From Desulfomonilia bacterium (GTDB lineage: Bacteria > Desulfobacterota > Desulfomonilia > UBA1062): a stretch of 64,000 nucleotides of DNA. The stretch spans positions 96,001 to 160,000 of the forward strand of contig JBEKDT010000009.1 in NCBI GenBank assembly GCA_050014195.1, written 5' to 3'. Position numbers and translations under genes: made by a program. Shown here in pieces: positions 1-15,164 of the stretch. The notes below the pieces were generated by a model. The model saw only the letters and a list, made by a program, of their open reading frames with translations, was not told where the DNA came from and did no database searches. Position 1 is the stretch's first letter, and every line of letters begins with the position of its first letter.

Positions 1-2
1 AT

Positions 3-1295
3 ACGAGAGAGACTTTTTTTAAGAACATCTATCAACTTAAAGGTGGTGAATATGCAATTCTTGATTTAAATAAGAGGACATTCGAAAAGAAAAGATATTA
101 TGATTTAAACGGTATTAATAAATTAGTTTGCAAAGAGTCGGACTATTATCTTCGTTTCAGGGAACTATTTACTGACTCTGTCAAACTAAGATTGAGAAGT
201 GATGTTCCAGTTGGGAGCTGTCTTTCTGGCGGGCTGGATTCATCAGCCGTAGTTTCAATTATCGCAACACTATGGAAAGAGAAAGAGAGGGTTTTATTTA
301 ATACATTTACTGCGTGCTGGGACGATAAAAAGATAGATGAGAGAAAATATTCAGAAGCAATTGTTGAATCCTCAGGCTTCAGCGGCAACTTTATTTATCC
401 TTCCTCTGAAGATCTGACAGAGGACTTGGCCAGTCTTCTTTGGCATCAGGAAGAACCCTTTGGAAGCCTTTCAATTTTTGCTCAGTGGTCCGTCATGAAA
501 GCAGCACAAAAGAAGGGTATAAAAGTTCTTTTAGACGGTCAAGGAGGAGATGAAGTTTTTTGCGGATATGAAAGATATTATGCATATTATCTATCAGCTC
601 TATTGAAGCAGTTTATGCTTAGGGAATTCATTAATGAGTTTATAAAAGGTGTAGAAAATTCTAAACTAAAATTATCCGGAATGATCTTATATTATATTTA
701 TTTTAATTGTGTACATGTTCGTGCCCTACGTCATCATATTAAATCATATAGAATATTAAATCCAAATTTTTTCATGAATTATGACATATTAGTTCGTCTT
801 AAAAATGGCTTTAAAGAAGCTAATGATTTGTCTGAGCTTCAAAGAAACGAAATTCAAGGAGTTCAACTTTCACATCTTCTTAAATATGCTGATAGAAATT
901 CTATGGCTTTTTCTATTGAAACACGGCTACCATTTCTTGATTATAGATTAGTTGAATTTGCATTATCAATTCCCATGGGATTATTAATCCATGATGGATG
1001 GACTAAAAATATAGTAAGAGAAGGTCTGAAAAGGATAATACCAGATGAAATTAGGAGAAGGAAAGATAAGATTGGGTTTGAAGTTCCACAAGATTTATTT
1101 ATAAAACATATCTTAGAAAATTATTTTAATGATATTAATGAAAATAGCTTGATTAGCACATATTTCAATAAAAAATGGTTATTAAAAGATATAAAAACTA
1201 TAAGTCGAAAAAACCCTATCATATGGAAAACATTATGTCTAGATTTATGGTTCAAAGTATTTTTTGAAAACGCCTATAATAATTTTAATCAATGA
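3..1295 (+). CDS. asnB: Asparagine synthase (glutamine-hydrolysing) family amidotransferase, 5'-truncated by window edge; probably amidates a polysaccharide sugar
   Basis: RSDVPVGSCLSGGLDSS, LDGQGGDEVFCGY and DRNSMAFSIETRLPFLD motifs; frame open back to position 3. Confidence 0.9.
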   Translation, partial: TRETFFKNIYQLKGGEYAILDLNKRTFEKKRYYDLNGINKLVCKESDYYLRFRELFTDSVKLRLRSDVPVGSCLSGGLDSSAVVSIIATLWKEKERVLFNTFTACWDDKKIDERKYSEAIVESSGFSGNFIYPSSEDLTEDLASLLWHQEEPFGSLSIFAQWSVMKAAQKKGIKVLLDGQGGDEVFCGYERYYAYYLSALLKQFMLREFINEFIKGVENSKLKLSGMILYYIYFNCVHVRALRHHIKSYRILNPNFFMNYDILVRLKNGFKEANDLSELQRNEIQGVQLSHLLKYADRNSMAFSIETRLPFLDYRLVEFALSIPMGLLIHDGWTKNIVREGLKRIIPDEIRRRKDKIGFEVPQDLFIKHILENYFNDINENSLISTYFNKKWLLKDIKTISRKNPIIWKTLCLDLWFKVFFENAYNNFNQ

Positions 1296-2470
1296 GTAAT
1301 ATAGATATCAGACATAGAATTGCTTTTATTATACCTCTTTTTATTTATGCAGGTTATTTTAAGTCATCAACATTTGATTTTGCTAGGTGGTATTCAGATC
1401 TTACTTTTTGGTTATTAATTTTTATTATATTAGTTCAATTATCTAAGATAAATTCTAATAAGATTCACTTTCGCAAATTCAATCCGGTCTTTTTCATCTT
1501 CCTGCCAATATCGTTCATGATATTGATTTCTGTTCTATTCGGCGAACTAACATCTAATGGTTTAATAAAAATGAAAGGTTTTATAGTAATATTAATCCCT
1601 ACTGTTCTAGTCAGCTTCTGGGTCATAAAGAATGAAGCTGATCTTAAGTACTTAGGTAATGGAATCATTGCATTGGGGCTTTTTACCAGTGCATATATTT
1701 TATCTAATTCAATATATAAGTCATGGGGAAATGTACAGTATTTGTCCTGCGGCACTATGACATCATTGGGCGGGCTTGTTTCAATTCATAGATTTTTAGT
1801 TGAGATCAAGAAGAGATGGTTTTACTTTTTATCATGTTGTATCTGTTCTATAGGTGTTATAGTAAGCTATGCACGTGGCCAGCAACTTATCTATTCCTTA
1901 ATATTATGTTCCATGTTGACATATTATTTTTGCTTTATCCGAGAGAAAATAAAGAAGAAAGTTATAGTGATATTCTGTCTAATTATATTATCAATACTTA
2001 TACTAATTGTTTACAATACCAAGTTAAGCTTGGATGAGAATTTTCTATATAGATTTGGTGAGAATTATTTTGAAGAAGGATTAGATTTACGATTTATATT
2101 ATTTGAAAATGCTCTGACATTATTCAGACAAAACCCCTTCATCCCGGCTGGAATAGGACAATACTCAGTAGAATTTCAAGGAGAAATAATTAGATATCCA
2201 CATAATATACCCTTAGAATTTGCTGCAGAGTTTGGTTTTATTGGACTTCTTTATTACTGCTTATTAATCATGGGAGTTTTTTATGGTTATTTACGATTTA
2301 GAAAAAACAAAATTATTAGAGAACATCTAATTATATACGTTTTTCTTTTTTTAATATCCTTAAAACAAGGATATATTTATGAGGATAAGGATTTCTGGAC
2401 ATGGTCGGCTTTAGGCTTAGGATTTTTAGGTTGGCATAGAGTAGTTCTTGACAGGTATGGATCCAGATAA
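1292..2470 (+). CDS. O-antigen polymerase/ligase (Wzy/WaaL-like) membrane protein
   Basis: Multi-TM, very AT-rich, S-x-x-R-G loop and YPHNIPLE motif of the Wzy_C domain; polysaccharide locus context. Confidence 0.75.
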   Translation: MSNIDIRHRIAFIIPLFIYAGYFKSSTFDFARWYSDLTFWLLIFIILVQLSKINSNKIHFRKFNPVFFIFLPISFMILISVLFGELTSNGLIKMKGFIVILIPTVLVSFWVIKNEADLKYLGNGIIALGLFTSAYILSNSIYKSWGNVQYLSCGTMTSLGGLVSIHRFLVEIKKRWFYFLSCCICSIGVIVSYARGQQLIYSLILCSMLTYYFCFIREKIKKKVIVIFCLIILSILILIVYNTKLSLDENFLYRFGENYFEEGLDLRFILFENALTLFRQNPFIPAGIGQYSVEFQGEIIRYPHNIPLEFAAEFGFIGLLYYCLLIMGVFYGYLRFRKNKIIREHLIIYVFLFLISLKQGYIYEDKDFWTWSALGLGFLGWHRVVLDRYGSR

Positions 2471-2503
2471 AAGAAAAAGAAGAAGATCTAACTGTAATAG
2501 GCA

Positions 2504-3670
2504 GTGTGGTACATCAAGACTAATTTGGCAGATACATTTAAAATGATAGCAACTGCAATCCTAACATCAGCCCACGACATATCTGACACCCGAATTTTTT
2601 ATAAAGAATGCAAAACTCTTGCAGGAGCTGGATACCAGGTCACCTACATTGTACCACATGAACAGGATCATTTTCTTAATGGAGTGTGTATTCATTCTGT
2701 CCCAAAGCCTAAAAACAGATTGGATCGCTTCATTTATACAATTTGGAATGTGTATAAGGCAGCAAAAATCGAAGATGTAGAATGTTATCATTTCCATGAT
2801 CCTGAACTAATACCCATTGGTTTGTTATTGAAGATTAAAGGTAAAAAGGTCATCTATGATGTACATGAAGATGTACCCAAACAGATTCTGAATAAAAATT
2901 GGATTCCTTCTATTCTCAGATCTGTAGTGTCTAAGGTTACAGGTTTTGTTGAACATCTAAGCGCGTTGTTCTTTGATGGGATAATTGCAGCTACACCAGA
3001 TATTGCTAGTAATTTTCCTGAAACAAAAACAATCATTGTTCAAAATTTTCCTATTCAGCACGAATTAACAACATCTCATCCTACGCCATATTGTAAAAGA
3101 TCCCCAATCATTGCATACGTAGGAGGGATATCAGAAATTCGTGGTATTAAGGAGATGATCCGTGCAATGAGCATACTAAAGCCACATTGCGGGGCGTGTA
3201 TACATATAGGTGGCACATTTTACCCATCCAATCTAGAAGAAGAAGTAAAAAATCTAACAGGTTGGGCTCATGTAAAATACATGGGTTGGCTATCCCGTGA
3301 GCAGATTTCACATCTGCTCAATAACGCAAGAATAGGTTTAGTTCTCCTTCATCCGAAAAAAAATTATCTACTAAGCTATCCAATAAAATTGTTTGAATAT
3401 ATGTCAGTGGGAATCCCTGTTATAGCATCTGATTTTCCGCTTTGGAGAGAAATTATTGAAGGCGCAGGTTGTGGTCTTCTGGTTAATCCCCTTGATCCAA
3501 AAGCCATTGCAGATTCAATACTATGGTTGCTCGAACATCCTGAAGAAGCCGAAATCATGGGGAAAAGAGGACAAGAGGCAGTTAGACATCGATATAATTG
3601 GCAGAATGAAGAAATTAAGTTATTAGATTTTTACAGCAAGATCCTAGGTAACATAAATAATTGTATCTGA
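2504..3670 (+). CDS. Glycosyltransferase family 4 (start may be ATG 2543)
   Basis: TSAH..DTRIF, HFHDPEL, PIKLFEYMSVGIPVIASDF GT4 motifs. Confidence 0.9.
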   Translation: MWYIKTNLADTFKMIATAILTSAHDISDTRIFYKECKTLAGAGYQVTYIVPHEQDHFLNGVCIHSVPKPKNRLDRFIYTIWNVYKAAKIEDVECYHFHDPELIPIGLLLKIKGKKVIYDVHEDVPKQILNKNWIPSILRSVVSKVTGFVEHLSALFFDGIIAATPDIASNFPETKTIIVQNFPIQHELTTSHPTPYCKRSPIIAYVGGISEIRGIKEMIRAMSILKPHCGACIHIGGTFYPSNLEEEVKNLTGWAHVKYMGWLSREQISHLLNNARIGLVLLHPKKNYLLSYPIKLFEYMSVGIPVIASDFPLWREIIEGAGCGLLVNPLDPKAIADSILWLLEHPEEAEIMGKRGQEAVRHRYNWQNEEIKLLDFYSKILGNINNCI

Positions 3671-3671
3671 A

Positions 3672-4349
3672 ATGTTACTACTTGATTGCGCTGATAAAAG
3701 CATGAGGAGAAAAGATTTGTTTGAAAGGATTCTCATTTTAGCACCACACACGGATGATGGTGAATTTGGTTGTGGTGGAGCGATATCAAAGTTTATCGAT
3801 TTGGGGAAGGAAGTGTATTATGTTGCTTTTTCGGATTGTAAAAAATCCCTTCCTCCGGATATGGCGCCTGATACCCTAGTGAAAGAACTAATGAGCGCAA
3901 CCAAGATACTAGGTGTCCCTCCTTCGAATGTTATCGTAAAAGAATTTGAACTACGGTGCTATGAAAGAGATCGACAAGAGATACTTGAGGAGATTATTAT
4001 CATCGGGAAAGATATTAACCCTGATCTAGTGTTCTTGCCCTCACCAAATGATTTACACCAGGATCATGAGACGATAGCTATGGAAGGTCTCCGCGCCTTC
4101 AAGCTGTCAGCTACAATTCTCGGCTATGAAATGCCTTGGAATAATTTGACATTTAATACTACTTGTTTCATAGGCCTGACAGAACAAAATCTTCAAAAAA
4201 AGGTCGAGGCGCTTCGATGTTACAAGTCTCAAGCTGAAAGATTTTATGCGACAGAGGAATTGGTTCGATCTTTGGCAATCACAAGGGGAACTCAAGTAAA
4301 CACACACTATGCTGAAACCTTTGATGTGCTTAGATGGCTTATAAAATAA
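3672..4349 (+). CDS. PIG-L/LmbE family deacetylase
   Basis: LAPHTDDGEFGCGG and HQDH metal-binding motifs; YKSQ near the C-terminus. Confidence 0.9.
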   Translation: MLLLDCADKSMRRKDLFERILILAPHTDDGEFGCGGAISKFIDLGKEVYYVAFSDCKKSLPPDMAPDTLVKELMSATKILGVPPSNVIVKEFELRCYERDRQEILEEIIIIGKDINPDLVFLPSPNDLHQDHETIAMEGLRAFKLSATILGYEMPWNNLTFNTTCFIGLTEQNLQKKVEALRCYKSQAERFYATEELVRSLAITRGTQVNTHYAETFDVLRWLIK

Positions 4350-4389
4350 CAAGAAAAATTAATCCTACTATCCTCGTAGGAATATCCAC

Positions 4390-5718
4390 ATGAAGCACGA
4401 CATTGATGAATTGGAAACACTCACTTATGAGCAGAGCTATAATGGAATAGATAGGGCTCTTCTCATACAGCAGCTGAAGTATGTCGCAGAAAACAGTCTT
4501 TTTTATCTGGAGAAATACGAAGAACATCGTTTAGAAAAAAATGATATCATCGACGTGAATAACTTTGAATTAGTGCCCTTTACTTATAAAGAAGAACTAT
4601 TGAGAGAGCAGGAAAAATATCCACCATTTGGTCGCTTGGCAACAAAGGATAATCAACACCATCTTCGTCGTGTACACATGACTTCAGGTTCAACAGGCAG
4701 ACCTCTGTATGTTGTATTAACTGAGAATGATTTGTTTGCAACTGTTGAAGCAGGACGTCGGGCATTTCTCTGTGCTGGGCTTAATGATGAAGATACGGTT
4801 ATTCACTGTCTGAACTACTGCTTATGGGCTGGAGGGCTGACTGATCACCTCAGTCTTGAGGCTACAGGTGCTACGGTTATCCCCTATGGCGTTGGGAACA
4901 CCAAACAACTTCTTCGGACAATTATTAATCTGAGACCAACAGCCATTTCTTGCACACCATCTTATCTGACAAGGCTGGAGTATATTTTGCGTGAGGAGTT
5001 TCAGTTATCCCCTGCTGCCCTTGGTCTTGAAAAGGCGTTCTTGGGGGGTGAGGGAGGTCTACAGAACCCGTTGGTGCGATCACGTATTGAAGAAACATGG
5101 AAAATGAAAGCAATTGATGCCAACTATGGAATGGCCGATGTCTTGAGTATATTTGGAGCGGAATGTGAGGCTCGAACAGGGTTGCATTTTCATGGGCAGG
5201 GTATCTTATATCTCGAACTCATTGATCCTTCATCTAATAAGAATTTACCAGTTGTAGATGGAGTAGTTGCTGAAATGGTTTTAACGAATCTAAGAAGAGA
5301 AGCTCAGCCTCTTGTGAGATATCGTACCAGAGATCTCATTCAAATTGTGTCAACCAGCCAATGCACATGTGGACGAAAATCATTCCGATTCCTTGTAATG
5401 GGGCGCACAGATGACATGATCACAGTTCGTGGTATTAATGTCTACCCAAATGCAATTGCAAATATCCTAGTGAAGCATCCAGAATGGTTCAGTGGAGAAT
5501 ATGAACTTATTGTGGATACACCTCCCCCAATTGAAATGCCACTCTTGCGGGTTGAATTATCTGCAAGTATTGAGTCAATTAATAATGAATCGCTTAGTTA
5601 TTATTTGATTAAAAAGTGTCATGAAAATCTTAATTTCAGACCCCGTATAGAGTTCATGGCACATGGTCATTTTCCCCGGACTGAAGGTAAGACCAAAAGA
5701 CTTAGGAAGATATACTGA
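4390..5718 (+). CDS. Phenylacetate-CoA ligase (PaaK)-like adenylating enzyme
   Basis: TSGSTGRP, YGMAD, RYRTRD, GRTDDMITVRGINVYP, C-terminal GKTKR. Confidence 0.85.
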   Translation: MKHDIDELETLTYEQSYNGIDRALLIQQLKYVAENSLFYLEKYEEHRLEKNDIIDVNNFELVPFTYKEELLREQEKYPPFGRLATKDNQHHLRRVHMTSGSTGRPLYVVLTENDLFATVEAGRRAFLCAGLNDEDTVIHCLNYCLWAGGLTDHLSLEATGATVIPYGVGNTKQLLRTIINLRPTAISCTPSYLTRLEYILREEFQLSPAALGLEKAFLGGEGGLQNPLVRSRIEETWKMKAIDANYGMADVLSIFGAECEARTGLHFHGQGILYLELIDPSSNKNLPVVDGVVAEMVLTNLRREAQPLVRYRTRDLIQIVSTSQCTCGRKSFRFLVMGRTDDMITVRGINVYPNAIANILVKHPEWFSGEYELIVDTPPPIEMPLLRVELSASIESINNESLSYYLIKKCHENLNFRPRIEFMAHGHFPRTEGKTKRLRKIY

Positions 5719-5884
5719 ATAAGATATCTTGCCACCTATAATTTAGGGATACTGATGAACAAGCGAACTCATCTATTAAGAGATTTAGTAGGATATCTTC
5801 ATCTGAAAAGATTACGAATTATCCTTCACACTATTTTACCTCAATTAATGTGTATTGATCAAAAGTCATTAGGGGGATATTAAT

Positions 5885-6766
5885 TTGAAAGTAATAACTA
5901 GTATGCACATTGCACAGTTCCTCGGGAAAACTTTACAAGGAGAACCAAACCCGATTTTTAAACCTGCAAACCTAAGCGATTGTGGACCGAATGATATTGT
6001 CTGGGTGAAAAGCTATACACAGGAACGACTTATTTTGCTTGAAAAAAGACAACCAGGATTAGCTATCTGTGATATGAAAACATCAGAAAAAACAACAGTT
6101 CCTACTATTCTATCAGAAAATCCACGGCTTGATTTCATTCGTGTGCTAAACCATTTTTATCTTGAGAAGAGAGAAGCTTGTATACACCCCACTGCAATCA
6201 TTGAGAAGAGCGCAACAGTTGGCAAAGATGTTACCATAGGTGCATATGCCTATATAGGTCATGATGTATTAATAGGTGACGGATGCAACATAGGAACTGG
6301 TGTAGTCATAGAAGGCAAAGTTTGCCTAGGAAATAGGTGCGTTATAAAGTCTAATGCTGCCCTTGGTGGACAGGGATTTGGTTTTGAATATGATGAATAC
6401 GGAAATCTAATTCATTTCCCGCATCTTGGAAGTATTATTACTGAAGATGATGTCTGGATTGGGTCCTGTTCTACAGTAGAAATTGGAACACTTGGAGCTA
6501 CTAGGATTTTTCGTGGTTCAAAAATTGATGATCTGGTTCAAGTGGGACATAATGTCACTGTCGGTCGAAACACGCTAATAATGGCAAACACAGTTCTTTG
6601 TGGTGGTTGCAGTATAGGTGAGAGGTGCTGGATAGCACCGAACAGTGTCATAAAAGAAAAGGTAAACATTGGGGACAATGTTACAGTTGGGCTAGGATCA
6701 GTGGTGCTAAGAGATGTAGAGGATGGAGTTGTAGTAGCAGGAGTTCCGGCAAAACCTCTCCAATAG
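5885..6766 (+). CDS. LpxD-like hexapeptide-repeat acyltransferase 1
   Basis: NPRLDF N-domain, hexapeptide repeats, GFGF, KIDDLVQVGHNV (catalytic His kept), GVPAK; TTG start. Confidence 0.8.
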   Translation: MKVITSMHIAQFLGKTLQGEPNPIFKPANLSDCGPNDIVWVKSYTQERLILLEKRQPGLAICDMKTSEKTTVPTILSENPRLDFIRVLNHFYLEKREACIHPTAIIEKSATVGKDVTIGAYAYIGHDVLIGDGCNIGTGVVIEGKVCLGNRCVIKSNAALGGQGFGFEYDEYGNLIHFPHLGSIITEDDVWIGSCSTVEIGTLGATRIFRGSKIDDLVQVGHNVTVGRNTLIMANTVLCGGCSIGERCWIAPNSVIKEKVNIGDNVTVGLGSVVLRDVEDGVVVAGVPAKPLQ

Positions 6767-6808
6767 AACGTGAAATTAAAGAGTCTGTTTTAAGAGTGGA
6801 GGTTAATA

Positions 6809-7723
6809 ATGTATCGTATAAAAAAGTTCGAGATTAGGGCATCAGAGATAGCCGATTATCTCAATGAACAGCTTGTAGGAAATGATTTCATCATTACAAG
6901 TCCTCATTCCATTAGAACATACAAATCTTCTGAACACTCATCGATGGAAGTCAATAGAAGTCGAAGCCAGATATTGATCATTTCTGATCATCCTGTGCCA
7001 GTAGATTTATGTACAGGCTATATAATTTCACAGAACCCTGATCTTGACTTGGCATATATATTACGCGAATTTTTCTCTACAGCTCCAATTAACCAAATCC
7101 ATTCATCTGCGATGATTTCAGAAGAAGCCCGTATAGGGAGAAATGTAATGGTAGGTGCTCATACTATTATTGGTCCTGATGTTACAATTGGAGATAACAC
7201 AAAAATTTTTCATAATGTTGTAATAAATGGCCTTGTCCATATTGGCAAATTCTGTGTTATCAAAGATGGCGCAGTTATTGGTAGTGAGGGATGGGGTTTC
7301 ATTGACGATGAAGATGGTATTCCCTTTCATCCTCCTCAATTAGGTCTTATCAGTATTGAAGACAGGGTTTGGATAGGTTCGAACTCAACAATTGAACGTG
7401 GCATGATTGAAGAAACAGTGATTCATGCTGATGTAAAAATCGACGACCTTGTTCATGTCGGGGCAGGATCACACTTAGGACAAAAAAGTAAACTCACTGC
7501 AGGTGTTGTAGTAGCTTCTCATGTTACAATAGGGGAAAATGTTTATATTGCACCCAATGCAGTAATTCGGGAAGAGTTGAATATTGATGATGACGTAGTT
7601 ATTGGCATGGGTGCAGTTGTCATTAACAATCTTACTTCTGGCAATAGATATGTAGGCAATCCAGCCCGATTAATCAGAAAGAAGAAAAGGCAGACTGATG
7701 ATGAAAAAGATACAGTTTCCTGA
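6809..7723 (+). CDS. LpxD-like hexapeptide-repeat protein 2 (catalytic His position is Ala)
   Basis: Hexapeptide repeats, GSEGWGF, KIDDLVHVGAGS, GNPAR. Confidence 0.8.
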   Translation: MYRIKKFEIRASEIADYLNEQLVGNDFIITSPHSIRTYKSSEHSSMEVNRSRSQILIISDHPVPVDLCTGYIISQNPDLDLAYILREFFSTAPINQIHSSAMISEEARIGRNVMVGAHTIIGPDVTIGDNTKIFHNVVINGLVHIGKFCVIKDGAVIGSEGWGFIDDEDGIPFHPPQLGLISIEDRVWIGSNSTIERGMIEETVIHADVKIDDLVHVGAGSHLGQKSKLTAGVVVASHVTIGENVYIAPNAVIREELNIDDDVVIGMGAVVINNLTSGNRYVGNPARLIRKKKRQTDDEKDTVS

Positions 7724-8786
7724 AAAGATTACTCCATTTCTTCGTGAAAAACTTGCCCTCTTGGAATCATCTTTTGGGTCAGATTCCAATGAATACAGAG
7801 GGCTTTCTCTTCAATATATTTTGAGCCCTTTAGAAGCAAAGGAAACTATCGAGCAAAATCTCAAGCATTATGATGCAGGTTTGTATCTTAATGAAGCTGA
7901 AGGAGACTTACCTGGAATAGAAAGACTATATAGGAATGTACTCGTTATTGAACCAACCTTGGTATGTCTTGCCCATTGTCGCTACTGCCTTCGGAGCAAC
8001 TACACAAAACATACATTAACAGAGAGGCAATTGATCGATGTAGCGAAGTATTGCGGCAATTCTAGCAATAGAGATATTTTGAACGAAGTTCTTATCACCG
8101 GCGGGGATCCCCTTATCATACCTCAACGTTTGGAAGTTCTTTTAAATGCTCTGATAGACTATGCACCAAATATTAAAACTATCAGGATAGGGACACGTCT
8201 TCCTGGTCAGGATCCAGCACGTATAGATGAAAATGTAATTAGTCTTTTTATTAATAAACCAACTTTAAGGTTTGAATTGGCGACTCAGATCAATCACCCG
8301 GTAGAGTTTTTCCCTGAGGTTGAAGAGGCTTTTCTCAAAATCTCAGATTTAGGAGTAAAGATATATGCGCAGAATGTCCTTCTTAAAGGAGTAAATGACC
8401 AAATTGATGCGTTGGTTGAGTTGTATAATAGGATGCGGGTTAATAATATCGAAGCTCATTATTTATTCCATTGCGTGCCTATGGTTGGAATTCATCATTT
8501 AAGAACTACCATTGCGAAGGCTCTTATACTGATAAAAGATCTTGTTTGTTCTGGAAAAATATCAGGCAGAGTTAAGCCCATGCTTGCAGCTATGACAGAT
8601 ATCGGAAAGATAACCTTCTATGAAGGTGTTATACGTGATCGGAGAGATAATAGGGTTTTGTTGCAAAGTAACTACCAATTTGCTGACCGTATTGCATGGA
8701 ATCCATCATGGCAGCTTCCTGAATCTGCAGGAATAGATGAGCACGGCCTACTACGTGTGTGGTATATTGATGGTGATGACTCCTAA
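7698..8786 (+). CDS. KamA-family radical SAM protein (amino acid 2,3-aminomutase-like)
   Basis: CLAHCRYCLR, ITGGDPL, IRIGTR, QINHP, QNVLLKGVND, C-terminal GK (putative PLP Lys). Confidence 0.85.
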   Translation: MMKKIQFPEKITPFLREKLALLESSFGSDSNEYRGLSLQYILSPLEAKETIEQNLKHYDAGLYLNEAEGDLPGIERLYRNVLVIEPTLVCLAHCRYCLRSNYTKHTLTERQLIDVAKYCGNSSNRDILNEVLITGGDPLIIPQRLEVLLNALIDYAPNIKTIRIGTRLPGQDPARIDENVISLFINKPTLRFELATQINHPVEFFPEVEEAFLKISDLGVKIYAQNVLLKGVNDQIDALVELYNRMRVNNIEAHYLFHCVPMVGIHHLRTTIAKALILIKDLVCSGKISGRVKPMLAAMTDIGKITFYEGVIRDRRDNRVLLQSNYQFADRIAWNPSWQLPESAGIDEHGLLRVWYIDGDDS

Positions 8787-8805
8787 TATAGCTATGTGAA
8801 ATAAG

Positions 8806-8949
8806 ATGAGAACCTCGGCAAACAAAAAACAACACCATATCTGGATTTTCAACCATTATGCGATTACTCCTGATCTTCCTGGGGGAACCCGTCACTACCA
8901 CATTGCGTATGAACTCGGTCGGAATGGTTATGATGTAACAATATTTGCC
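8806..8949 (+). pseudogene. N-terminal fragment of a GT4 (WbuB-like) glycosyltransferase
   Basis: HIWIFNHYAITPDLPGGTRHY..A.EL...GYDVTIFA, then similarity stops abruptly. Confidence 0.75.
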
Positions 8950-9179
8950 ATGAATTGGGAGCAGTCACTTATATTTCAGGCAAAGGTGGCGATAACTATC
9001 AAGATCATTTCAAATTTAAGATGGCTGGTATCAACCTGGAAGTAAAGACCTATAAGCCAATACCGTATGACCAGAAAACTGATTTGTTCATGCCAGGACT
9101 CAGCATAATGGATGCATTGTTTAATCTTGGTAAATCTACAATAAATCTAATGAACTATTCCGCAGCAAGCGGCGAATAA
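8940..9179 (+). pseudogene. C-terminal fragment of a WbqC-family protein
   Basis: NICHELGAVTYISGKGGDNY ... Y.Q....FMPGLSIMDALFNLG, the typical WbqC C-terminus; N-terminal part missing. Confidence 0.75.
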
Positions 9180-9201
9180 TGAAACTCATAGAGATTGAAT
9201 T

Positions 9202-10503
9202 ATGAGAATTTGGTTAGTTTCTATAGGTGAACCAATACCAACAAGCGCTGACAGTAATTCTCGACTGCTTCGGACAGGATATTTTGCTAATTTACTGTCA
9301 CAATATGGCAATGATGTAATCTGGTGGACTTCTGCATTTGATCACTTTAGAAAAACACAGCTTTGTACTACGGATACTGATTTGGTTATTAATCAACATC
9401 TTACTATCAGGCTTTTGTGTGGCTCTGGATACAAAAGTCATGTGTCGCTAAGACGGGTCTGGGATCACTGGAAAATCTCTAGGAAGTTTTCTTCGGCCAT
9501 AAAGAAGCAGACTATGCTTCCGGATATAATTTTAGCTGCATTACCTACGATAGATCTCTGTTATGAGTCAGTTGTGTTCGGGAATCAGCAGGGAATACCC
9601 GTAGTTCTTGATATGCGAGACATGTGGCCAGATATTTTTGTAGATCTCGCTCCTGATTTCTTAAGACCATTAACACGACGCCTCTTAAGTTATCAGTTTC
9701 GAAGAGCTGGATATGCATGCGAAAAAGCTACAGCTATTATTGGGATAACAGATGAATTTGTTGCATGGGGTTTAAAACGGGGACAACGATGTAAGCAAGA
9801 ATTCGACAAATCATTCCCCTTTGGATATTCGATTCAGGCCATAACAAGAGAATCTGAAGAGAATGCAATTATTGAACTCAATCATCGAGGGATCCATTTT
9901 GATGACGATAACCTATATGCCCTTTATATTGGGTCGCTCAGTCGCAATGCGAACTTGGGTGATATCATATCTGCAAGCAGAATTCTTTATGAGCAAAACT
10001 CAAAATGGAAGTTTATTGTATGTGGCGATGGTGATTGTGTTGATCTAATATTAAATCATATTAGTAAATATCCAAATGTAAAATACGGGGGTTGGGTAGA
10101 TAGAACAATGATTCATAGTCTAATGCGACGATGTCATGTTGGTTTAAATCAACTTCCTGATCGATACGATTTTCTTGCCACCATTAATAACAAAGCCATT
10201 GAGTATATGAGCGCGGGTCTCCCTATCATTTCAAGTCCGGATCGGGGTGTTCTATGTGAGCTTCTCAAGATGCATGAGTGCGGGATAAGTTATCCTTCTG
10301 GTGATGCTGGGGCTCTGGCTTCGACGCTTACACGGTTTTATGATGACCAGGGTATGCTAAGGAAAATGTCGCAGAACGCCATGCAGCTGTTCCAAGAACG
10401 TTTTATTGCAGAAAAGATTTATACAGAGATGATGGAGCATTTGGTGATGATAGCGGAAAATCAAAATCAATCTGTTAGAACAGGTGGTCAGGATTGGGCA
10501 TGA
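9202..10503 (+). CDS. Glycosyltransferase family 4
   Basis: DMRDMWPD and NKAIEYMSAGLPII motifs. Confidence 0.85.
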   Translation: MRIWLVSIGEPIPTSADSNSRLLRTGYFANLLSQYGNDVIWWTSAFDHFRKTQLCTTDTDLVINQHLTIRLLCGSGYKSHVSLRRVWDHWKISRKFSSAIKKQTMLPDIILAALPTIDLCYESVVFGNQQGIPVVLDMRDMWPDIFVDLAPDFLRPLTRRLLSYQFRRAGYACEKATAIIGITDEFVAWGLKRGQRCKQEFDKSFPFGYSIQAITRESEENAIIELNHRGIHFDDDNLYALYIGSLSRNANLGDIISASRILYEQNSKWKFIVCGDGDCVDLILNHISKYPNVKYGGWVDRTMIHSLMRRCHVGLNQLPDRYDFLATINNKAIEYMSAGLPIISSPDRGVLCELLKMHECGISYPSGDAGALASTLTRFYDDQGMLRKMSQNAMQLFQERFIAEKIYTEMMEHLVMIAENQNQSVRTGGQDWA

Positions 10504-10525
10504 CATATTTTCGGGATAGATATCT

Positions 10526-11419
10526 ATGAACAGACTGGATGACATTATGATTGACGATAAAGTACAGCAGAAAATTGAGTATCGGCCATCTCTGGCCGGG
10601 TGCTTAGCACGGATTTTCATACCCCTGTTGCAAGCAGTACTCCCACCAAAAGCATACCGTGTGATCTATGATGGACTCTATGAGAGTTACAAGCAGATTC
10701 TCAGATCGAGCTATGTAGTTAGGGTTATCGCAGCAAGACTCTTTAGCGATCAGGAGCAGCAGTTAAAGACATCACTCACTCATCAGTTACTGCCCTACAC
10801 TATGGGGGGATGGAAGGCGCTCGAGAACGCATTCAAAGTGACTGCCCTTGTCGAACAAAAAAAGATTGAAGGTGCTTTGGTTGAGTGCGGCGTTGCAAAG
10901 GGTGGTACTGCTGCGATGATGGCCTTAACAAATCGAAAGCTTGGCACAATTATGCGGCCTAAGTGGTTTTTCGACTCCTACGAAGGCCTACCTGAACCGA
11001 CTGCTGAAGACTATGAAGGTGGGAAACAGGGCCACTTTATTCGTCCTCTTACAAAAGGGGCCTGTCTGGGGACCATTGAGCAAGTTAGTGATTTGATGTT
11101 CAATAAATTGCACTTGCCCAAGAATGAGGTTCATTTGGTGAAGGGCTGGTTCCAAGACACGGTGCCTGTTTATCGTGAGAGGATCGGGCCAATTGCCATG
11201 CTGCGTTTGGATGGTGACTGGTATGAGTCTACCAAGATACCGCTGGAAAATCTTTTTGATCAAATTAGTATTGGCGGGTTTGTAATCATTGATGATTACG
11301 CAACCTGTTTTGGTTCTCGTAAGGCGGTGGACGAGTTTCGGGCTGAGCGCAGTATCACCTCGTCGCTTCGGCCTGATGGGCGTGGAGGCGCCTGGTTCGA
11401 GAAGCATGAGGCGAAGTAA
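10526..11419 (+). CDS. TylF/MycF/NovP-family sugar O-methyltransferase
   Basis: VECGVAKGG, FDSYEGLP, KGWFQDT, LRLDGDWYEST, IIDDY. Confidence 0.9.
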   Translation: MNRLDDIMIDDKVQQKIEYRPSLAGCLARIFIPLLQAVLPPKAYRVIYDGLYESYKQILRSSYVVRVIAARLFSDQEQQLKTSLTHQLLPYTMGGWKALENAFKVTALVEQKKIEGALVECGVAKGGTAAMMALTNRKLGTIMRPKWFFDSYEGLPEPTAEDYEGGKQGHFIRPLTKGACLGTIEQVSDLMFNKLHLPKNEVHLVKGWFQDTVPVYRERIGPIAMLRLDGDWYESTKIPLENLFDQISIGGFVIIDDYATCFGSRKAVDEFRAERSITSSLRPDGRGGAWFEKHEAK

Positions 11420-12075
11420 TGAAAACATCGCCTGAAACACCGATCGCTTTTCCCGAAAGGTGGATCTATGTATTGTTGAAGCGAGTAATGGATGTAGTCG
11501 GTGCCATGGCGGGGATATTAGTCTTGGCGCCTTTGCTTATCTTGATTGCTGTCGTCTTAAAATTAACATCACAAGGACCGGTTTTTTACCGTGGTGTGCG
11601 CGCCGGATTGAACGGAAAGCCATTTCGTATCTTCAAATTCAGAACAATGTTAGAGAATGCCGAGTCTTTGGGCGGGCCCACTACAAGTACTAACGATCAA
11701 AGAGTAACGCGTATTGGAGCCTTGCTTCGTCGAACCAAGCTTGATGAGTTCCCACAGCTCCTGAATGTCTTGGCTGGTGATATGAGCCTCGTGGGGCCTC
11801 GGCCGGAAGTGTTGGAATATACCTCACAATACAAAGGTGAGGAGAAATATATTCTCAGCATGCGTCCCGGGATAACTGATTATGCATCAATTGAATTTGC
11901 CGATCTTGATGATCTGGTGGGAAGCACAGACCCTGACAAATACTTCCGTGAACATATCCTACCTCGTAAGAATGCATTGAGAGTCAAATATGTGAAAGAA
12001 TGGTCATTGGGTTCTGATTTTGGCATTCTTTGGGCTACTTTTCTCAGGGTGATGAAGAGAATTGCTGCGCAATGA
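11419..12075 (+). CDS. Bacterial sugar transferase (initiating phosphoglycosyl transferase)
   Basis: [32 protein letters not shown]. Confidence 0.92.
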
Positions 12076-13016
12076 GTATCTTGGAGAGAATGCATCTCGG
12101 TCGAACCGGGCTTTATATCAGTCGCCTCGGAATGGGCTGTTGGGCTATTGGGGGTCATGGTTGGGGCCAGGTGAGGGATGAGGATTCTATCCGAGCCGTC
12201 CAGGGCGCATTAGAGAATGGAGTCACATTCTTTGATACAGCAGATGCCTATGGGCTTGGAAAGTCTGAGACATTACTTGCTAAGGTATTAGGTTCGTCCA
12301 TTACTCAAGTTGTCATCGCAAGTAAAGGGGGCGTTCGATGGAATGAAAGTGGAAATATATGGTCCGATAGTTCACCTGCCTACCTGAGACTGGCTGTAGA
12401 AAATAGTTTAAGACGATTGAAGCTTGATTGTATTCCCCTTTACTATATCCATAAACCTGATGAGGTAACGCCTATACAGGAGAGTGTTGCTGCCCTTGAG
12501 CGCATGTGTGAAGAAGGTAAGATAGGCGCCATAGGCGTCGCAAATTTCTCTGCCGATCAATTGCTGCAGGCATTGCAGGTTGCTCTGGTAGCAGCGGTTC
12601 AGGTACGTTTAAATATTTTTGATAGAGATACGAGTAAAGAGTTATTGGGCATTTGCAGAGAGCATGGCATAACTCTTGTTGCTTGGGGCGCACTTGCGGA
12701 TGGATTGTTAACCGGTAAATTTTCAACCAATACAAAGTTCTCTGAAGATGACCACCGTAACAGAATGCCTGAGTTTACAGGGAATAATTTTTTAAAGTAC
12801 GACAAATGTCTAAAATTACTTAAGCAGTTGGCTGCCGATAGGGGACGGAAAGTTGGTCAACTTGCACTTCGGTGGGTGCTGGATTTTGAGCCTTTTACAT
12901 GTTCGCTGTTTGGTGCAAAAACAGATATTCAGGTAATGGATAATTTGGGAGCAGATGGGTGGAGCTTAACAAAAGAAGAGCTTGCAGCTATCGATTCCAT
13001 AGTGGCTGAACTTTGA
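12072..13016 (+). CDS. Aldo/keto reductase
   Basis: LGRTGL.ISRLGMG, FDTADAYG.G.SE, SLRRLKLD; ATG 12072 overlaps upstream TGA. Confidence 0.9.
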   Translation: MSILERMHLGRTGLYISRLGMGCWAIGGHGWGQVRDEDSIRAVQGALENGVTFFDTADAYGLGKSETLLAKVLGSSITQVVIASKGGVRWNESGNIWSDSSPAYLRLAVENSLRRLKLDCIPLYYIHKPDEVTPIQESVAALERMCEEGKIGAIGVANFSADQLLQALQVALVAAVQVRLNIFDRDTSKELLGICREHGITLVAWGALADGLLTGKFSTNTKFSEDDHRNRMPEFTGNNFLKYDKCLKLLKQLAADRGRKVGQLALRWVLDFEPFTCSLFGAKTDIQVMDNLGADGWSLTKEELAAIDSIVAEL

Positions 13017-13023
13017 AGATGAT

Positions 13024-14001
13024 ATGACTTACTCAATTGATATTTTGTGTGATTTGTATAAAACAATGTTTCGTATCCGCTCTTTCGAAGAGAGCCTGGT
13101 GGAACCCATCCTAAACAGCGAGATCCGTACACCCTGCCATCTTTACAGCGGTCAGGAGGCCGTTGCGGTCGGTCTCTGTACGGCCCTCTCCAAGGATGAT
13201 TACATCTTTGGTAATCATCGCTCACATGGCCATTTCCTGGCCAAGGGGGGCTCCCTGAAGGCTATGGCGGCTGAGATTTATTGCCGTGAGGCAGGTTGCT
13301 CCAGGGGCCGTGGGGGCTCTATGCACCTGATCGATCCGGATGTGGGTATGCTGGGATCGGCACCGATAGTGGCCGGGACTATCTCCCTGGCACTTGGGGC
13401 GGCGCTGGCCTCTTCCATTCGAAAAGACGGTCGTGTGACAGTGTGTTTTTTCGGAGACGGGGCCACAGGCGAAGGCGTCCTTTACGAATCCCTGAACTTT
13501 GCCGCCTTGAAAAAACTCCCTTTGATATTTGCCTGTGAAAATAATCTTTATGCTACGCATATGCCTATCCGGGAATGCCGGGTAAACCTGCCGATCAGCA
13601 GGATCGCAGAGCCCTTCGGCATAGAGATTCATACGGTGGATGGTAACGATGTGTTGCAGGTCCGTGATGAAGGTCAACATGCAGTGGAAACCTGCCGCAT
13701 TGGTAATGGACCCGTATTTATGGAGTTCATGACCTATCGATACCGAGGTCATGTAGGCCCGGATGACAACATACAGGGTAATCATACAGATATAAGGCCC
13801 AGGGAAGAAGTCGCCATATGGATGGAAAAGGATCCCATCAAGAAATTCGAACGATACCTGACAGATCAAGGAATGATGGATGAGAATGAGCTGCAGGATA
13901 TCAGGAACGAGGTTGCTGATGAGATACGGGATGCAAAGGATTTCGCAATAAATAGCCCACGCCCGTCGGGAGAGGATCTGACGAAATATGTCTTCGCATA
14001 G
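13024..14001 (+). CDS. TPP-dependent dehydrogenase E1 alpha subunit-like
   Basis: HLYSGQEA, HRSHGH, GRGGSMH, GDGA...ENN TPP motif, TYRYRGH. Confidence 0.9.
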   Translation: MTYSIDILCDLYKTMFRIRSFEESLVEPILNSEIRTPCHLYSGQEAVAVGLCTALSKDDYIFGNHRSHGHFLAKGGSLKAMAAEIYCREAGCSRGRGGSMHLIDPDVGMLGSAPIVAGTISLALGAALASSIRKDGRVTVCFFGDGATGEGVLYESLNFAALKKLPLIFACENNLYATHMPIRECRVNLPISRIAEPFGIEIHTVDGNDVLQVRDEGQHAVETCRIGNGPVFMEFMTYRYRGHVGPDDNIQGNHTDIRPREEVAIWMEKDPIKKFERYLTDQGMMDENELQDIRNEVADEIRDAKDFAINSPRPSGEDLTKYVFA

Positions 14002-14971
14002 GACACTCCAGTACGGCCTGGCCATTAACGAGGCGCTCCACCAGATGATGGAGATGGACAGCTCCGTTTTTCTCATCGGGCAGGGGGTGGAAAGCCCCTG
14101 GTATGTGGGCAATACTGCACAGGGGCTTCTGGAGAGGTTCGGGAAAGGACGGGTCATTGACACACCAGTGTCCGAGAATGCCATTACAGGGGCAGCCGTA
14201 GGGGCAGCCATCGCAGGTATGAAACCAGTGGTGGTTCATCCCAGGGTGGATTTCATGATGTACGCCATGGACCCAATCATAAACGAGGCAGCTAACTGGT
14301 TTTATATGAACGGCGGCAGGGCTTGTGTACCGGTCGTTTTTTGGGGTATCATAAACAGAGGTGGAGAACAGGCAGCCCAACATTCACAGGCTATTCATGC
14401 GTTGTTTGCTCATTGTCCAGGTCTCAAGGTCGTAATGCCGTCAACCCCTTATGATGCAAAGGGATTACTCATATCAGCTGTAAGGGATATGAACCCAGTT
14501 GTTTATATTGATGATAGGTGGCTGTATAATCTGGAGGATGTTGTTCCGGAAGAAATGTATGAAGTCCCCATTGGTCAAGCTATAGTTAGAAAAAAAGGTA
14601 AGGATGTAACAATCGCTGCGGTCTCTTATATGGCGCATACTGCTCTGAAAGCATCTGAGAAACTCCTAGATCTTGGTATTGATTGTGAATTGATCGATCT
14701 GCGGAGTATAAAGCCATTGGATAAGAATACCCTATTACAATCAGTTCGAAAAACAGGCAGATTAGTAATTGCTGATGTAGGATGGAAATCATTCGGAATT
14801 AGCGCTGAGATAGCTGCTATTGTTTGTGAGGGGGCCTTCAAAGAATTAAAAAGTCCGGTTGTTCGAGTTGCCCTACCCGATACACCAGCCCCTGCGAGTA
14901 GATCGCTAGAGGGTCAATATTTTCCTAAAGAAGATGACATAATAAAGGCTGTTCAAGGTATTATTAATTGA
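13988..14971 (+). CDS. TPP-dependent dehydrogenase E1 beta subunit-like
   Basis: DTPVSENA, AAQHSQ, PYDAKGLL, DLRSIKPLD. Confidence 0.9.
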   Translation: MSSHRTLQYGLAINEALHQMMEMDSSVFLIGQGVESPWYVGNTAQGLLERFGKGRVIDTPVSENAITGAAVGAAIAGMKPVVVHPRVDFMMYAMDPIINEAANWFYMNGGRACVPVVFWGIINRGGEQAAQHSQAIHALFAHCPGLKVVMPSTPYDAKGLLISAVRDMNPVVYIDDRWLYNLEDVVPEEMYEVPIGQAIVRKKGKDVTIAAVSYMAHTALKASEKLLDLGIDCELIDLRSIKPLDKNTLLQSVRKTGRLVIADVGWKSFGISAEIAAIVCEGAFKELKSPVVRVALPDTPAPASRSLEGQYFPKEDDIIKAVQGIIN

Positions 14972-15164
14972 TAACATGTGTCTATAAATAATCATGATGT
15001 TCAATATATGTGTTATATCTTTTTTATTATTACAATATTTTGAATAAAGGGGTATATGTTTGCCTAACAAGACCCCTACCTAAGCTCCAAGATAAAGCAT
15101 CATTGAAGTGGTGATTTTGAGATATTGTGCGCTCAAATGTTTCATAACGAGGTAAAAATTTAAA

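Follow-up and report, generated by a model that had tools for sequence, protein, structure and literature searches.

A putative sugar N-acyl tailoring cassette with a KamA-like radical-SAM protein in a bacterial Wzx/Wzy polysaccharide locus

Five consecutive genes in a polysaccharide locus of a Desulfomonilia bacterium probably form a cassette for the synthesis of an unusual amino acid, likely a beta-amino acid, and for its activation and attachment to amino sugars. Their adjacency is far beyond chance, since all five are found again, identically ordered, at 10 other distinct loci (L001, L003, L004, L031, L040, L042, L044, L049, L056 and L061; KamA-like identity 58-75%, pairwise 58-84%). The conserved unit is a trio of genes coding for a KamA-like protein, a PaaK-like ligase and an LpxD-like hexapeptide (LbH) protein, and a PIG-L deacetylase together with a second, histidine-bearing LbH protein constitutes an add-on 'swap' module. 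We give an even chance to the reading that the cassette is a modular sugar N-acyl tailoring unit within a horizontally exchanged part of the Wzx/Wzy locus.

The genes occupy positions 3672-8786 (+) of the window, i.e. the whole 64,000-nucleotide stretch of DNA that was analysed. The first-pass annotation had described five adjacent co-oriented genes for a PIG-L deacetylase, a PaaK-like ligase, two LpxD-like proteins and a KamA-family protein in a polysaccharide locus, and this description is borne out by the list of open reading frames, by Pfam and by NCBIfam, in which nearly all best matches score under the curated cut-offs. By sequence, all five genes are intact and carry the expected catalytic motifs. 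The preceding glycosyltransferase gene stops at 3670, the gaps between the genes are, in order, 40, 166 and 42 nt, and the last pair overlaps by 26 nt. The cassette sits in a low-GC part of the locus, with Wzz, Wzx, AsnB-like, Wzy and GT4 genes upstream and GT4, TylF-like methyltransferase, small Bac_transf and PglF-like dehydratase genes downstream (Pfam). Also upstream are a DegT gene, a WbpB-WbpD fusion, which has a syntenic counterpart on the same contig in the L003 genome (77% identity), and a WbpA-like dehydrogenase. Judged by these genes, the locus carries a 2,3-diamino-uronic-acid pathway (WbpA/B/E/D-like), whose product is a plausible acceptor with two amines. Directly behind the cassette, positions 8787-9201 (+) are a recombination remnant with two gene fragments, recognized by ORF matches: ORF 8806-9045 resembles the N-terminus of the GT4 gene found 3' of the KamA-like gene in L001 (63% over 51 aa), and ORF 8955-9179 encodes the C-terminus of a WbqC-like protein, matching positions 154-216 of the 218 in PF08889 (E 2e-15).

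Predicted functions of the five proteins

The KamA-like protein (7698-8786, +, 362 aa) belongs to a distinct subfamily of KamA-family radical-SAM/PLP proteins and matches Radical_SAM in Pfam (E 4.8e-09). Its sole PDB sequence match is lysine 2,3-aminomutase 2a5h (E 1e-26, or 5e-35 with a profile), which is also the top Foldseek match of its AF2 model (pLDDT 89.3; E 2e-21, next fold 3e-6). C90/C94/C97, R99 and K304 are invariant across 32 sequences, and the Fe-S cysteines and the equivalents of LAM R134 and K337 are kept. LAM D293 corresponds to V260 and LAM D330 falls within a 2-residue deletion; in KamA-like proteins the first of these sites is V, I or L and the second is deleted. Lysine is an unlikely substrate because both lysine-side-chain aspartates are missing; they are present in a canonical KamA paralogue elsewhere in the genome (L036, 354 bits). 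We propose that the KamA-like protein is a 2,3-aminomutase acting on a non-basic amino acid, probably one with a small or hydrophobic side chain, as two alignment positions suggest. The protein could instead epimerise or rearrange an amino acid, deaminate it to an enoyl or keto acid, or catalyze yet another PLP/radical-SAM reaction, and the tailoring cassette, otherwise the same, would then install a different unusual acyl residue. Some other radical reaction is conceivable since the protein scores under all curated KamA-family cut-offs in NCBIfam (131 bits versus 199 for TIGR00238, and 112-130 versus 369-650 for the equivalogs), and the identity to the canonical paralogue of only 30%, the absence of a Pfam match to LAM_C and the loss of the substrate-binding aspartates point in the same direction. 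We nevertheless regard such a reaction as unlikely: the protein retains the fold as well as the cysteines of the cluster, its PLP lysine and its carboxylate arginine, and to our knowledge every characterised KamA-family member is a 2,3-aminomutase.

The PaaK-like (COG1541-type) adenylate-forming ligase (4390-5718, +, 442 aa) matches AMP-binding (E 1.9e-11) and AMP-binding_C_2 (E 1.1e-10) in Pfam. Its best NCBIfam match is PaaK, at 211-222 bits versus cut-offs of 646-700; closer PaaK paralogues are present elsewhere in the genome (640, 470 and 385 bits). To judge by PDB names, some PaaK-like enzymes make amides or esters directly. The ligase aligns with PDB 4r1l over residues 26-440 (E 3.3e-56), including the TSGSTGRP loop and the C-terminal GK lysine, and would activate the amino acid, most likely with a CoA thioester as product. 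CoA is suggested as the carrier by the likeness to PaaK, by the lack of an ACP gene and by the absence from the LbH proteins of the LpxD C-terminal helical domain, which is the ACP-recognition domain of LpxD. Rather improbable, in our opinion, is that the ligase itself forms an amide directly between the amino acid and either a sugar amine or a uronic-acid carboxylate, with the LbH proteins otherwise employed, possibly in acetylating or otherwise capping the new amino group. Its PDB relatives do include the non-CoA ligases AjiA1 (6wuq) and 'PaaK-like ligase' (6siw), the LpxD histidine is absent from one of the LbH proteins, uronic acids are made by the locus, and in L020 the KamA-like gene is accompanied by an ATP-grasp ligase gene and a PIG-L fusion and by neither PaaK-like nor LbH genes, which appears to be an alternative ligation solution. 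However, the closest relatives are by far true CoA ligases (E 1e-42 to 1e-56, versus 1e-14 to 1e-16 for the non-CoA ligases), the LbH proteins have the full LpxD nucleotide-sugar architecture and are linked as tightly as the ligase, and GNAT-like proteins are seen for capping in other loci.

The two LpxD-shaped hexapeptide proteins, LbH1 (5885-6766, +, 293 aa, TTG start) and LbH2 (6809-7723, +, 304 aa), match Hexapep in Pfam (E 3.9e-28 and 1.1e-27) and both have LpxD as their best NCBIfam match. LbH1 scores above the cut-off of the LpxD subfamily model NF002060 (277 versus 207 bits) and under that of the LpxD equivalog TIGR01853 (211.6 versus 242.5), and LbH2 reaches 175 bits with LpxD models, under cut-off. 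In the alignment of LbH1 with the PDB LpxD 2iu8 (E 1.3e-32) its 'GHN' is opposite 'AHQ', and the catalytic histidine is present in every LbH1-type orthologue aligned. LbH2 has alanine instead, and the position is A, G, N, S, Q or Y in 14 aligned LbH2-type sequences. LpxD chains align to residues 3-301 of the LbH2 AF2 model (pLDDT 90.7), including the N-terminal domain, with Z of 29-31; these matches stop near LpxD residue 304-315 and the C-terminal helical domain is absent, as it is from LbH1. Base-less LbH N-acyltransferases exist, and by analogy with them we assume transferase activity for LbH2, the usual trio member adjoining the KamA-like gene, which more likely acylates a free sugar amine.

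The PIG-L/LmbE-family zinc deacetylase (3672-4349, +, 225 aa) matches PF02585 with 57.4 bits versus a cut-off of 28.2 (E 2.8e-15) and the BshB1 equivalog of NCBIfam with merely 56.6 versus 182.5. It has AHTDD and HQDH, which we take to be metal-ligand motifs, and in the PDB it is closest to diacetylchitobiose deacetylases (E 9e-11). LbH1 travels with this gene: in a hand tally, whose association is inflated by relatedness because most positives are one clade, 12 of 17 distinct His-type LbH1 loci had a PIG-L of the window's type (44-80% identity), compared with none of 15 distinct LbH2-only loci. Unrelated CE4 deacetylases occur in four of those 15, and two of the five LbH1 loci lacking PIG-L are short contigs.

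PIG-L and CE4 deacetylases often use non-nucleotide substrates, and it could be considered that the acceptor is a lipid-linked repeat unit, a finished polymer or a lipid A-like glycolipid, the last suggested by the likeness to LpxD (by NF002060, LbH1 would be named LpxD). We find this improbable, as the families of all five proteins suggest soluble, cytoplasmic enzymes, the N-terminal domain, which binds uridine in LpxD, is structurally retained, a genuine lpxD is present elsewhere in the genome (C1, 365 bits), and the surroundings are those of O-antigen/EPS and nonulosonic-acid loci rather than lipid A genes.

Recurrence in other glycan loci

Linkage was examined in 40 distinct loci whose KamA-like gene is flanked by 4 kb or more upstream and by 2.5 kb or more downstream, and the counts use the 36 which are not from named actinobacteria. 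A PaaK-like gene was present in 31 of the 36, an LpxD-like LbH gene (at least 31% identity) in 26 and the complete trio also in 26, while in five the KamA-like gene had no ligase. Co-occurrence in polysaccharide loci, which the first-pass annotation had named as a check of its proposal, is thus found both for the trio and, in the 10 further loci, for all five genes. By record title, trio loci come from Bacteriovoracaceae, Desulfovibrionaceae, Desulfobacteraceae, Omnitrophica, Porphyromonadaceae, Calditrichales, Planctomycetota/Phycisphaerae, Bacillota and Patescibacteria, and their contexts are always glycan loci. For example, L005, L006, L007 and L018 have NeuB, CMP-transferase, PglD-like, 2-epimerase, PseB-like and DegT genes nearby (L007 additionally a Maf gene), and in L013 WbpA/B/D/E-like genes adjoin the cassette. 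The neighbours of actinobacterial homologues (41-44% identity) are adenylating enzymes and NRPS or PKS genes, a setting to be expected for amino-acid building blocks. That the five genes are chance neighbours with unrelated functions is disfavoured and hardly credible: the locus is indeed mosaic and low in GC, with gene fragments directly 3' of the cassette, but the identical order elsewhere and the spread of the trio over many phyla and differing glycan pathways speak against it.

Proposed route and comparison with known systems

Read most simply, the domains and contexts point to isomerisation, activation and transfer to an amino sugar. The KamA-like protein would convert a free alpha-amino acid of the non-basic kind proposed above to its beta isomer, and the ligase would adenylate this product and then, most likely, form the CoA thioester. 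With their N-terminal domains, LbH1 and LbH2 would bind a UDP-amino sugar, and they would move the acyl group to sugar nitrogens, LbH2 acylating an amine freshly produced by an aminotransferase. PIG-L would strip an existing N-acetyl group from the amino sugar, probably nucleotide-linked, and LbH1, its proposed partner, would re-acylate the same position. The favoured acceptor would be UDP-2-acetamido-3-amino-2,3-dideoxy-hexuronic acid, because WbpA/B/E/D-like enzymes are encoded in the locus, and the order in which N3 and N2 are served would mirror that of LpxA, LpxC and LpxD on GlcN3N-type lipid A. The upstream WbpB-WbpD fusion should already acetylate N3, i.e. compete with the LbH2 step. 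GNAT-like genes adjoin the trio in some other loci; the window's own locus has none, so the beta-amino groups may stay free, in which case the polymer may become cationic or zwitterionic. We consider this route as a whole the best explanation, at a confidence about midway between doubt and acceptance. The earlier interpretation is partly supported: its 'acyl-swap' reading agrees with the PIG-L and LbH1 module and probably does not extend to LbH2, and as LbH2 likelier acts on a free amine the cassette would be only partly an acyl swap. Our literature search found no paper describing this gene combination, nor do we know of beta-aminoacyl substituents in any bacterial glycan.

KamA (Clostridium subterminale, PDB 2A5H), EpmB, AblA and the glutamate and arginine 2,3-aminomutases share with the KamA-like protein the fold, CxxxCxxC, the PLP lysine and the carboxylate-binding arginine. 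They differ from it in sequence (about 22-30% identity), in greater length, in the LAM_C match and side-chain aspartates which it lacks, and in being encoded with lysine fermentation, EF-P modification or osmolyte genes instead of in glycan loci. In AblA/AblB, which synthesize N-epsilon-acetyl-beta-lysine in methanogens, the genes for a KamA-family aminomutase and an acyltransferase are coupled, as in the cassette, but the product is a free osmolyte made from lysine and no sugar, ligase or deacetylase is involved.

The lipid A enzymes LpxA, LpxC and LpxD, and the GlcN3N variant with GnnA/GnnB, acylate a UDP-amino sugar at N or O, deacetylate it at 2-N and N-acylate it, which is the logic proposed for the cassette, also with a trimeric beta-helix enzyme of LpxD type. 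LbH1 and LbH2 share the two-domain architecture of LpxD and lack its C-terminal helical domain, and the catalytic histidine is kept in LbH1 and not in LbH2; the deacetylase is PIG-L instead of LpxC, and the donor is presumably an aminoacyl-CoA instead of a hydroxyacyl-ACP. In the teicoplanin/A40926 acyl swap, an LmbE-like deacetylase followed by an acyl-CoA N-acyltransferase exchanges the N-acetyl group of an amino sugar for an acyl group from a CoA thioester, as we propose here, and anthrose AntD-type enzymes illustrate that LbH N-acyltransferases accept non-acetyl acyl-CoA donors. Both use fatty or hydroxy-acyl groups from primary metabolism, with neither aminomutase nor dedicated ligase.

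Mycothiol and bacillithiol are assembled by a deacetylase (MshB/BshB), a ligase (MshC/BshC) and, in the former, the GNAT MshD. There too a PIG-L-family enzyme bares the 2-amine of a GlcNAc derivative and an amino acid is added in an ATP-dependent manner, and the final acetylation of the amino acid by a GNAT in mycothiol fits with the GNAT-like genes beside the trio in other loci. BshB models nevertheless score far under cut-off on the cassette's PIG-L, and the product is a thiol cofactor, whereas in the cassette, whose product would be a polysaccharide or glycoprotein sugar, the amino acid would first be remodelled by a radical-SAM enzyme, and activation and transfer would be divided between the PaaK-like ligase and an LbH transferase.

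The five genes and their surroundings

On the forward strand of the window, positions 3672-8786 are occupied by five genes which according to the ORF list encode a PIG-L protein (3672-4349, + strand, 225 aa), a PaaK-like ligase (4390-5718, + strand, 442 aa), two LpxD-like hexapeptide proteins, LbH1 (5885-6766, + strand, 293 aa) and LbH2 (6809-7723, + strand, 304 aa), and a KamA-like protein (7698-8786, + strand, 362 aa). The first four genes are separated by 40, 166 and 42 nt, and the LbH2 and KamA-like genes overlap by 26 nt. The domain calls of the first-pass annotation for these genes were borne out by both Pfam and NCBIfam, and all five proteins miss the NCBIfam cut-offs of characterised families, with LbH1 on NF002060 as the sole exception. 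Counts from a promoter and terminator scan of 2400-10600 did not differ from those of shuffled sequences (26 vs 25.5 and 5 vs 4.8) and are uninformative on operon structure.

The contig region that includes the sequence upstream of the window (L035) carries, ahead of the cassette, genes for a DegT aminotransferase, a GFO/IDH/MocA-hexapeptide fusion, Wzz, a WbpA-like UDP-sugar dehydrogenase, Wzx and an AsnB-like amidotransferase; within the window the order is Wzy, a GT4 and then the five cassette genes. The fusion joins a WbpB-like GFO/IDH/MocA oxidoreductase to a WbpD-like hexapeptide acetyltransferase (530 aa; L035:11957-13549, equal to C9:88957-90549, upstream of the window). It is also a single protein in the genomes of two other loci with the cassette, L003 (77%) and L031 (57%); in the former it shares a contig with the cassette and precedes it by about 13 kb, the same arrangement as in the window. 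Downstream follow a GT4, a TylF-like methyltransferase, a small Bac_transf protein, an aldo-keto reductase, E1 alpha/beta TPP proteins and a PglF-like dehydratase which ends at 17111, with housekeeping genes beyond. The aldo-keto reductase and the E1 alpha/beta pair (TPP-dependent, pyruvate-dehydrogenase-like), located at 12030-14971 beside the PglF-like dehydratase, are syntenic in L003 with 71-78% identity, and these genes may build a branched or two-carbon-extended sugar.

The GC content of the five cassette genes is 38-41.5% (GC3 27-35%) in a host genome of 50.2%, as expected of an exchangeable core in polysaccharide loci. Positions 1-10500 of the window have 30-41% GC (GC3 24-35%) and the downstream half of the locus (10526-17111) 44-51%; the amino acid identity of this half to L003 (71-88%) is higher than that of the cassette genes (62-74%). 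The KamA-like gene and the glycosyltransferase gene after it are separated by two gene fragments at 8787-9201. The first matches the N-terminal ~51 codons of the GT4 found after the KamA-like gene in L001 (63% identity) and the second corresponds to the C terminus of a WbqC-like protein (PF08889 positions 154-216), so that this stretch looks like a recombination scar at the right edge of the cassette.

Features of the encoded enzymes

The only solved sequence relative of the KamA-like protein is lysine 2,3-aminomutase (LAM, PDB 2A5H; E 1e-26, or 5e-35 with a profile). When the AF2 model (pLDDT 89.3) was compared by Foldseek, the same structure (E 2e-21, TMq 0.67) led the next family, viperin (3e-6), by fifteen orders of magnitude. 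The ESM Atlas gave nothing more specific than 'radical SAM' and 'putative L-lysine 2,3-aminomutase' clusters. C90, C94 and C97, aligned to LAM C125/C129/C132, belong to the radical-SAM CxxxCxxC cluster motif, here CLAHCRYC. K304 corresponds to LAM K337, the PLP-binding lysine, in profile, BLASTP and hhalign alignments, and R99 aligns to LAM R134, the alpha-carboxylate arginine; all five residues are invariant in 32 sequences. The enzyme is, from these alignments and the model, very probably PLP- and SAM-dependent with a free amino acid as substrate.

This substrate is probably not lysine, because the equivalents of LAM D293 and D330, which bind the epsilon-ammonium group of lysine, are missing. 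The position of the former is V260 in the KamA-like protein, and V, I, L or C occupies it across all 34 genome loci, while at the position of the latter four independent alignments place a two-residue deletion. A route from lysine to a beta-lysyl sugar was dropped for the same absence of both aspartates. Scores on curated HMMs are below cut-off (TIGR00238 131.1 vs 199.2, TIGR03820 112.8 vs 525.4), and those on the NCBIfam EpmB, Glu and Arg aminomutase models are also far under it. The host genome possesses in addition a canonical lysine 2,3-aminomutase-type gene on contig C21 (L036:1369-2709, - strand, 446 aa, 354 bits on TIGR00238), whose product retains both lysine-binding aspartates and is 30% identical to the cassette protein. 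An ATP-grasp-like ORF of 337 aa (L036:374-1387, - strand) comes after this canonical gene.

The cassette PIG-L scores 57.4 on Pfam PF02585 (gathering cut-off 28.2) and contains the metal-binding motifs AHTDD and HQDH; on NCBIfam it falls outside the BshB1 and BshB2 subfamilies (56.6 vs 182.5 and 32.7 vs 195.25). Pfam AMP-binding and AMP-binding_C_2 domains give the ligase an ANL fold with a short PaaK-type C-terminal domain. Its residues 26-440 align to PDB 4r1l, P-loop and C-terminal lysine both covered, and the expected TSGSTGRP loop and C-terminal GK lysine are present. It scores below the NCBIfam PaaK equivalog cut-offs (TIGR02155 211 vs 646.3, NF041878 222.5 vs 700), it is surrounded by glycan genes and not by a paa operon, and closer PaaK paralogues are located elsewhere in the host genome.

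The beta-helix of both hexapeptide proteins aligns to LpxD (E 1e-32 for LbH1, 2e-28 for LbH2). Residues 3-301 of the LbH2 AF2 model (pLDDT 90.7) superpose on LpxD chains, N-terminal domain included, with Z 29-31, and LpxA chains match it over residues 94-298 only; Pfam PF04613, used as a test for the LpxD N-terminal domain, had no match at E <=0.001 in the cassette LbH proteins. The catalytic histidine of LpxD is H239 in E. coli and H247 in C. trachomatis. LbH1 retains this residue, its 'GHN' standing opposite 'AHQ' in LpxD 2iu8, and LbH2 has Ala instead. In an alignment of LbH proteins this His ('GHN') was present in 9/9 LbH1-type sequences, and the position was A, G, N, S, Q or Y in all 14 of LbH2 type. 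Matches of both proteins stop at LpxD residues 304-316, their lengths being 293 and 304 aa vs 337-357 aa for LpxD, and the C-terminal helical domain, which is the ACP-recognition element of LpxD, is therefore absent. Together with the lack of any ACP-like ORF, as seen by eye among ORFs of at least 40 aa in 3600-9300, this favours CoA and not ACP as the predicted acyl donor. The TIGR01853 equivalog (cut-off 242.5) gives 211.6 for LbH1 and 175.2 for LbH2, and their gene context is not that of lipid A synthesis; LbH1 passes the LpxD 'subfamily' model NF002060 (277 vs 207 bits) and will probably be named LpxD by automatic annotation, the genuine lpxD (365 bits) being on contig C1 of the host genome.

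Recurrence and genomic contexts

Relatives of the KamA-like protein numbered 706 at E <=0.001 among 4776 candidates, and the best 120 of the 706 share 55-100% identity with it, at lengths of about 360 aa. A homologue from Geomonas oryzisoli, a cultured carrier, is among the relatives. The genome collection returned no relative when queried with a single KamA-like sequence; the scan was redone with an alignment of KamA-like proteins and yielded 34 loci from species genomes and 68 from metagenomes. Identical or near-identical loci were left out (L039 and L055, which are the window itself, and L052, L067, L079, L066, L045, L077, L084, L091, L026, L033 and L050), and the counts are based on the 40 distinct loci in which the KamA-like gene is flanked by at least 4 kb on its upstream side and at least 2.5 kb on its downstream side. 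Four of the 40 are from named actinobacteria and have neither partner gene. The remaining 36 include 31 with a PaaK-like gene, 26 with an LpxD-like LbH gene (at least 31% identity) and 26 with both; the five ligase-free loci are L008, L020, L024, L032 and L065. All five genes, order kept, were found in ten loci (L001, L003, L004, L031, L040, L042, L044, L049, L056 and L061), and in L063 the PIG-L match alone is missing, the other four genes being present. The first-pass annotation had called for a neighbourhood search and named a lack of co-occurrence elsewhere as grounds against its reading; since the KamA-like, ligase and LbH trio recurs in 26/36 loci and the complete set in ten, such a lack is not what we found. 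By record title the trio loci belong to Bacteriovoracaceae, Desulfovibrionaceae, Desulfobacteraceae, Omnitrophica, Porphyromonadaceae, Calditrichales, Planctomycetota/Phycisphaerae, Bacillota and Patescibacteria.

The usual single LbH adjoining the KamA-like gene is of LbH2 type, which is alone in most loci; a heterotrimer of LbH1 and LbH2 is a candidate arrangement. In Phycisphaerae and Planctomycetales loci the only LbH is of LbH1 type, which in the five-gene sets is an additional one. By hand tally, 12 of the 17 distinct loci with His-type LbH1 and none of the 15 distinct LbH2-only loci carry a PIG-L of the window type (44-80% identity), which is to be read as an association and not a statistic because most positives come from one clade. 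The His-type LbH1 loci without it are L013, L023, L034, L063 and L085, two of them short contigs. Among the 15 LbH2-only loci, a distant PIG-L occurs in L007 and L073, a CE4 deacetylase in four, and GNAT-like or weakly GNAT-like proteins of ~370 aa in six.

In four loci (L005, L006, L007 and L018) the trio is found among nonulosonic-acid genes, its neighbors being NeuB, CMP-transferase, PglD-like, hydrolysing 2-epimerase, PseB-like and DegT genes, with a Maf flagellin glycosyltransferase gene in addition in L007. In L013 the order is DegT, WbpD-like, WbpA-like, an unknown gene and WbpB-like, continued by LbH1-type, PaaK-like, LbH2-type, KamA-like, Wzy and flippase genes. Occurrence in both nonulosonic and Wbp contexts means that the cassette plugs into different amino-sugar pathways, which fits a tailoring module requiring only a sugar amine. 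In the Lachnospiraceae locus L020 (3371-7378) the partners of the KamA-like gene encode an ATP-grasp ligase and a PIG-L fusion protein of 591 aa, PaaK-like and LbH genes being absent; this is an alternative design for amino acid attachment. Actinobacterial homologues (L021 and L028; also L026, L027, L029, L030 and L033) are 41-44% identical with the same pocket residues; the adjoining genes are NRPS (C-A-T-TE) genes, or KASIII, adenylating-enzyme and type I PKS genes, which suggests that these homologues supply a beta-amino-acid building block to natural-product clusters.

A candidate acyl-swap route and known systems

The conservation, architecture and motifs of the cassette are established, and they are consistent with a route in which the KamA-like enzyme would convert a non-basic amino acid to its beta form and the PaaK-like ligase would turn this into an acyl-adenylate, probably then a CoA thioester. 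LbH2 would acylate a freshly made sugar amine, PIG-L would take off an N-acetyl group and LbH1 would re-acylate the same nitrogen. The natural acceptor in the home locus would be the WbpA/B/E product, a UDP-2-acetamido-3-amino uronic acid that offers two sites, N3 and N2. Lipid A synthesis proceeds in the order LpxA, LpxC, LpxD, which the proposed steps would copy. Against this route, the upstream WbpD-like domain should acetylate N3, and LbH2 lacks a general base, although LbH N-acyltransferases without such a base are known.

A more far-reaching reading, which we regard as tentative and less likely than not, is that the KamA-like proteins form a new substrate class of radical-SAM 2,3-aminomutases, for a neutral amino acid, and that the products are the first beta-aminoacylated bacterial surface glycans, with a doubly loaded diamino uronic acid in a zwitterionic polymer. 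Alanine might then give beta-alanine, or else the beta form might be that of a branched amino acid or one with a thioether; in the home locus, acylation, deacetylation and re-acylation in the manner of lipid A would load both nitrogens of the 2,3-diamino uronic acid, and the free amines left would make the polymer zwitterionic.

No link between a KamA-type aminomutase and O-antigens, capsules, exopolysaccharides, nonulosonic acids or the glycosylation of flagellin emerged from the open-access literature searched. A glutamate-1-semialdehyde aminomutase is listed in PMC3694923 and only a COG1541 gene in PMC5467263, both irrelevant to a glycan role of KamA-type enzymes. The genes are a pitfall for annotation, as automatic procedures will name them 'lysine 2,3-aminomutase', 'phenylacetate-CoA ligase' and 'LpxD'. 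The trio of soluble enzymes is tractable for reconstitution, and its likely new aminomutase specificity is relevant to beta-amino acid biocatalysis.

The cassette belongs with sugar N-acyl tailoring, a known kind of system. N-acyl groups of amino sugars set the serotype, the charge of the surface and its recognition by phages and antibodies, and the known decorations derive from acetyl-CoA, from hydroxyacyl-CoAs or from ordinary amino acids. The cassette, which occurs in many phyla and serves at least two sugar pathways, those of nonulosonic acids and of 2,3-diamino uronic acids, resembles in its logic lipid A synthesis, mycothiol/bacillithiol assembly and the teicoplanin acyl swap. To our knowledge none of these systems has an aminomutase or a dedicated ligase, and to the known decorations the cassette would add a dedicated radical-SAM-based route with a branch of the aminomutase family at its centre.
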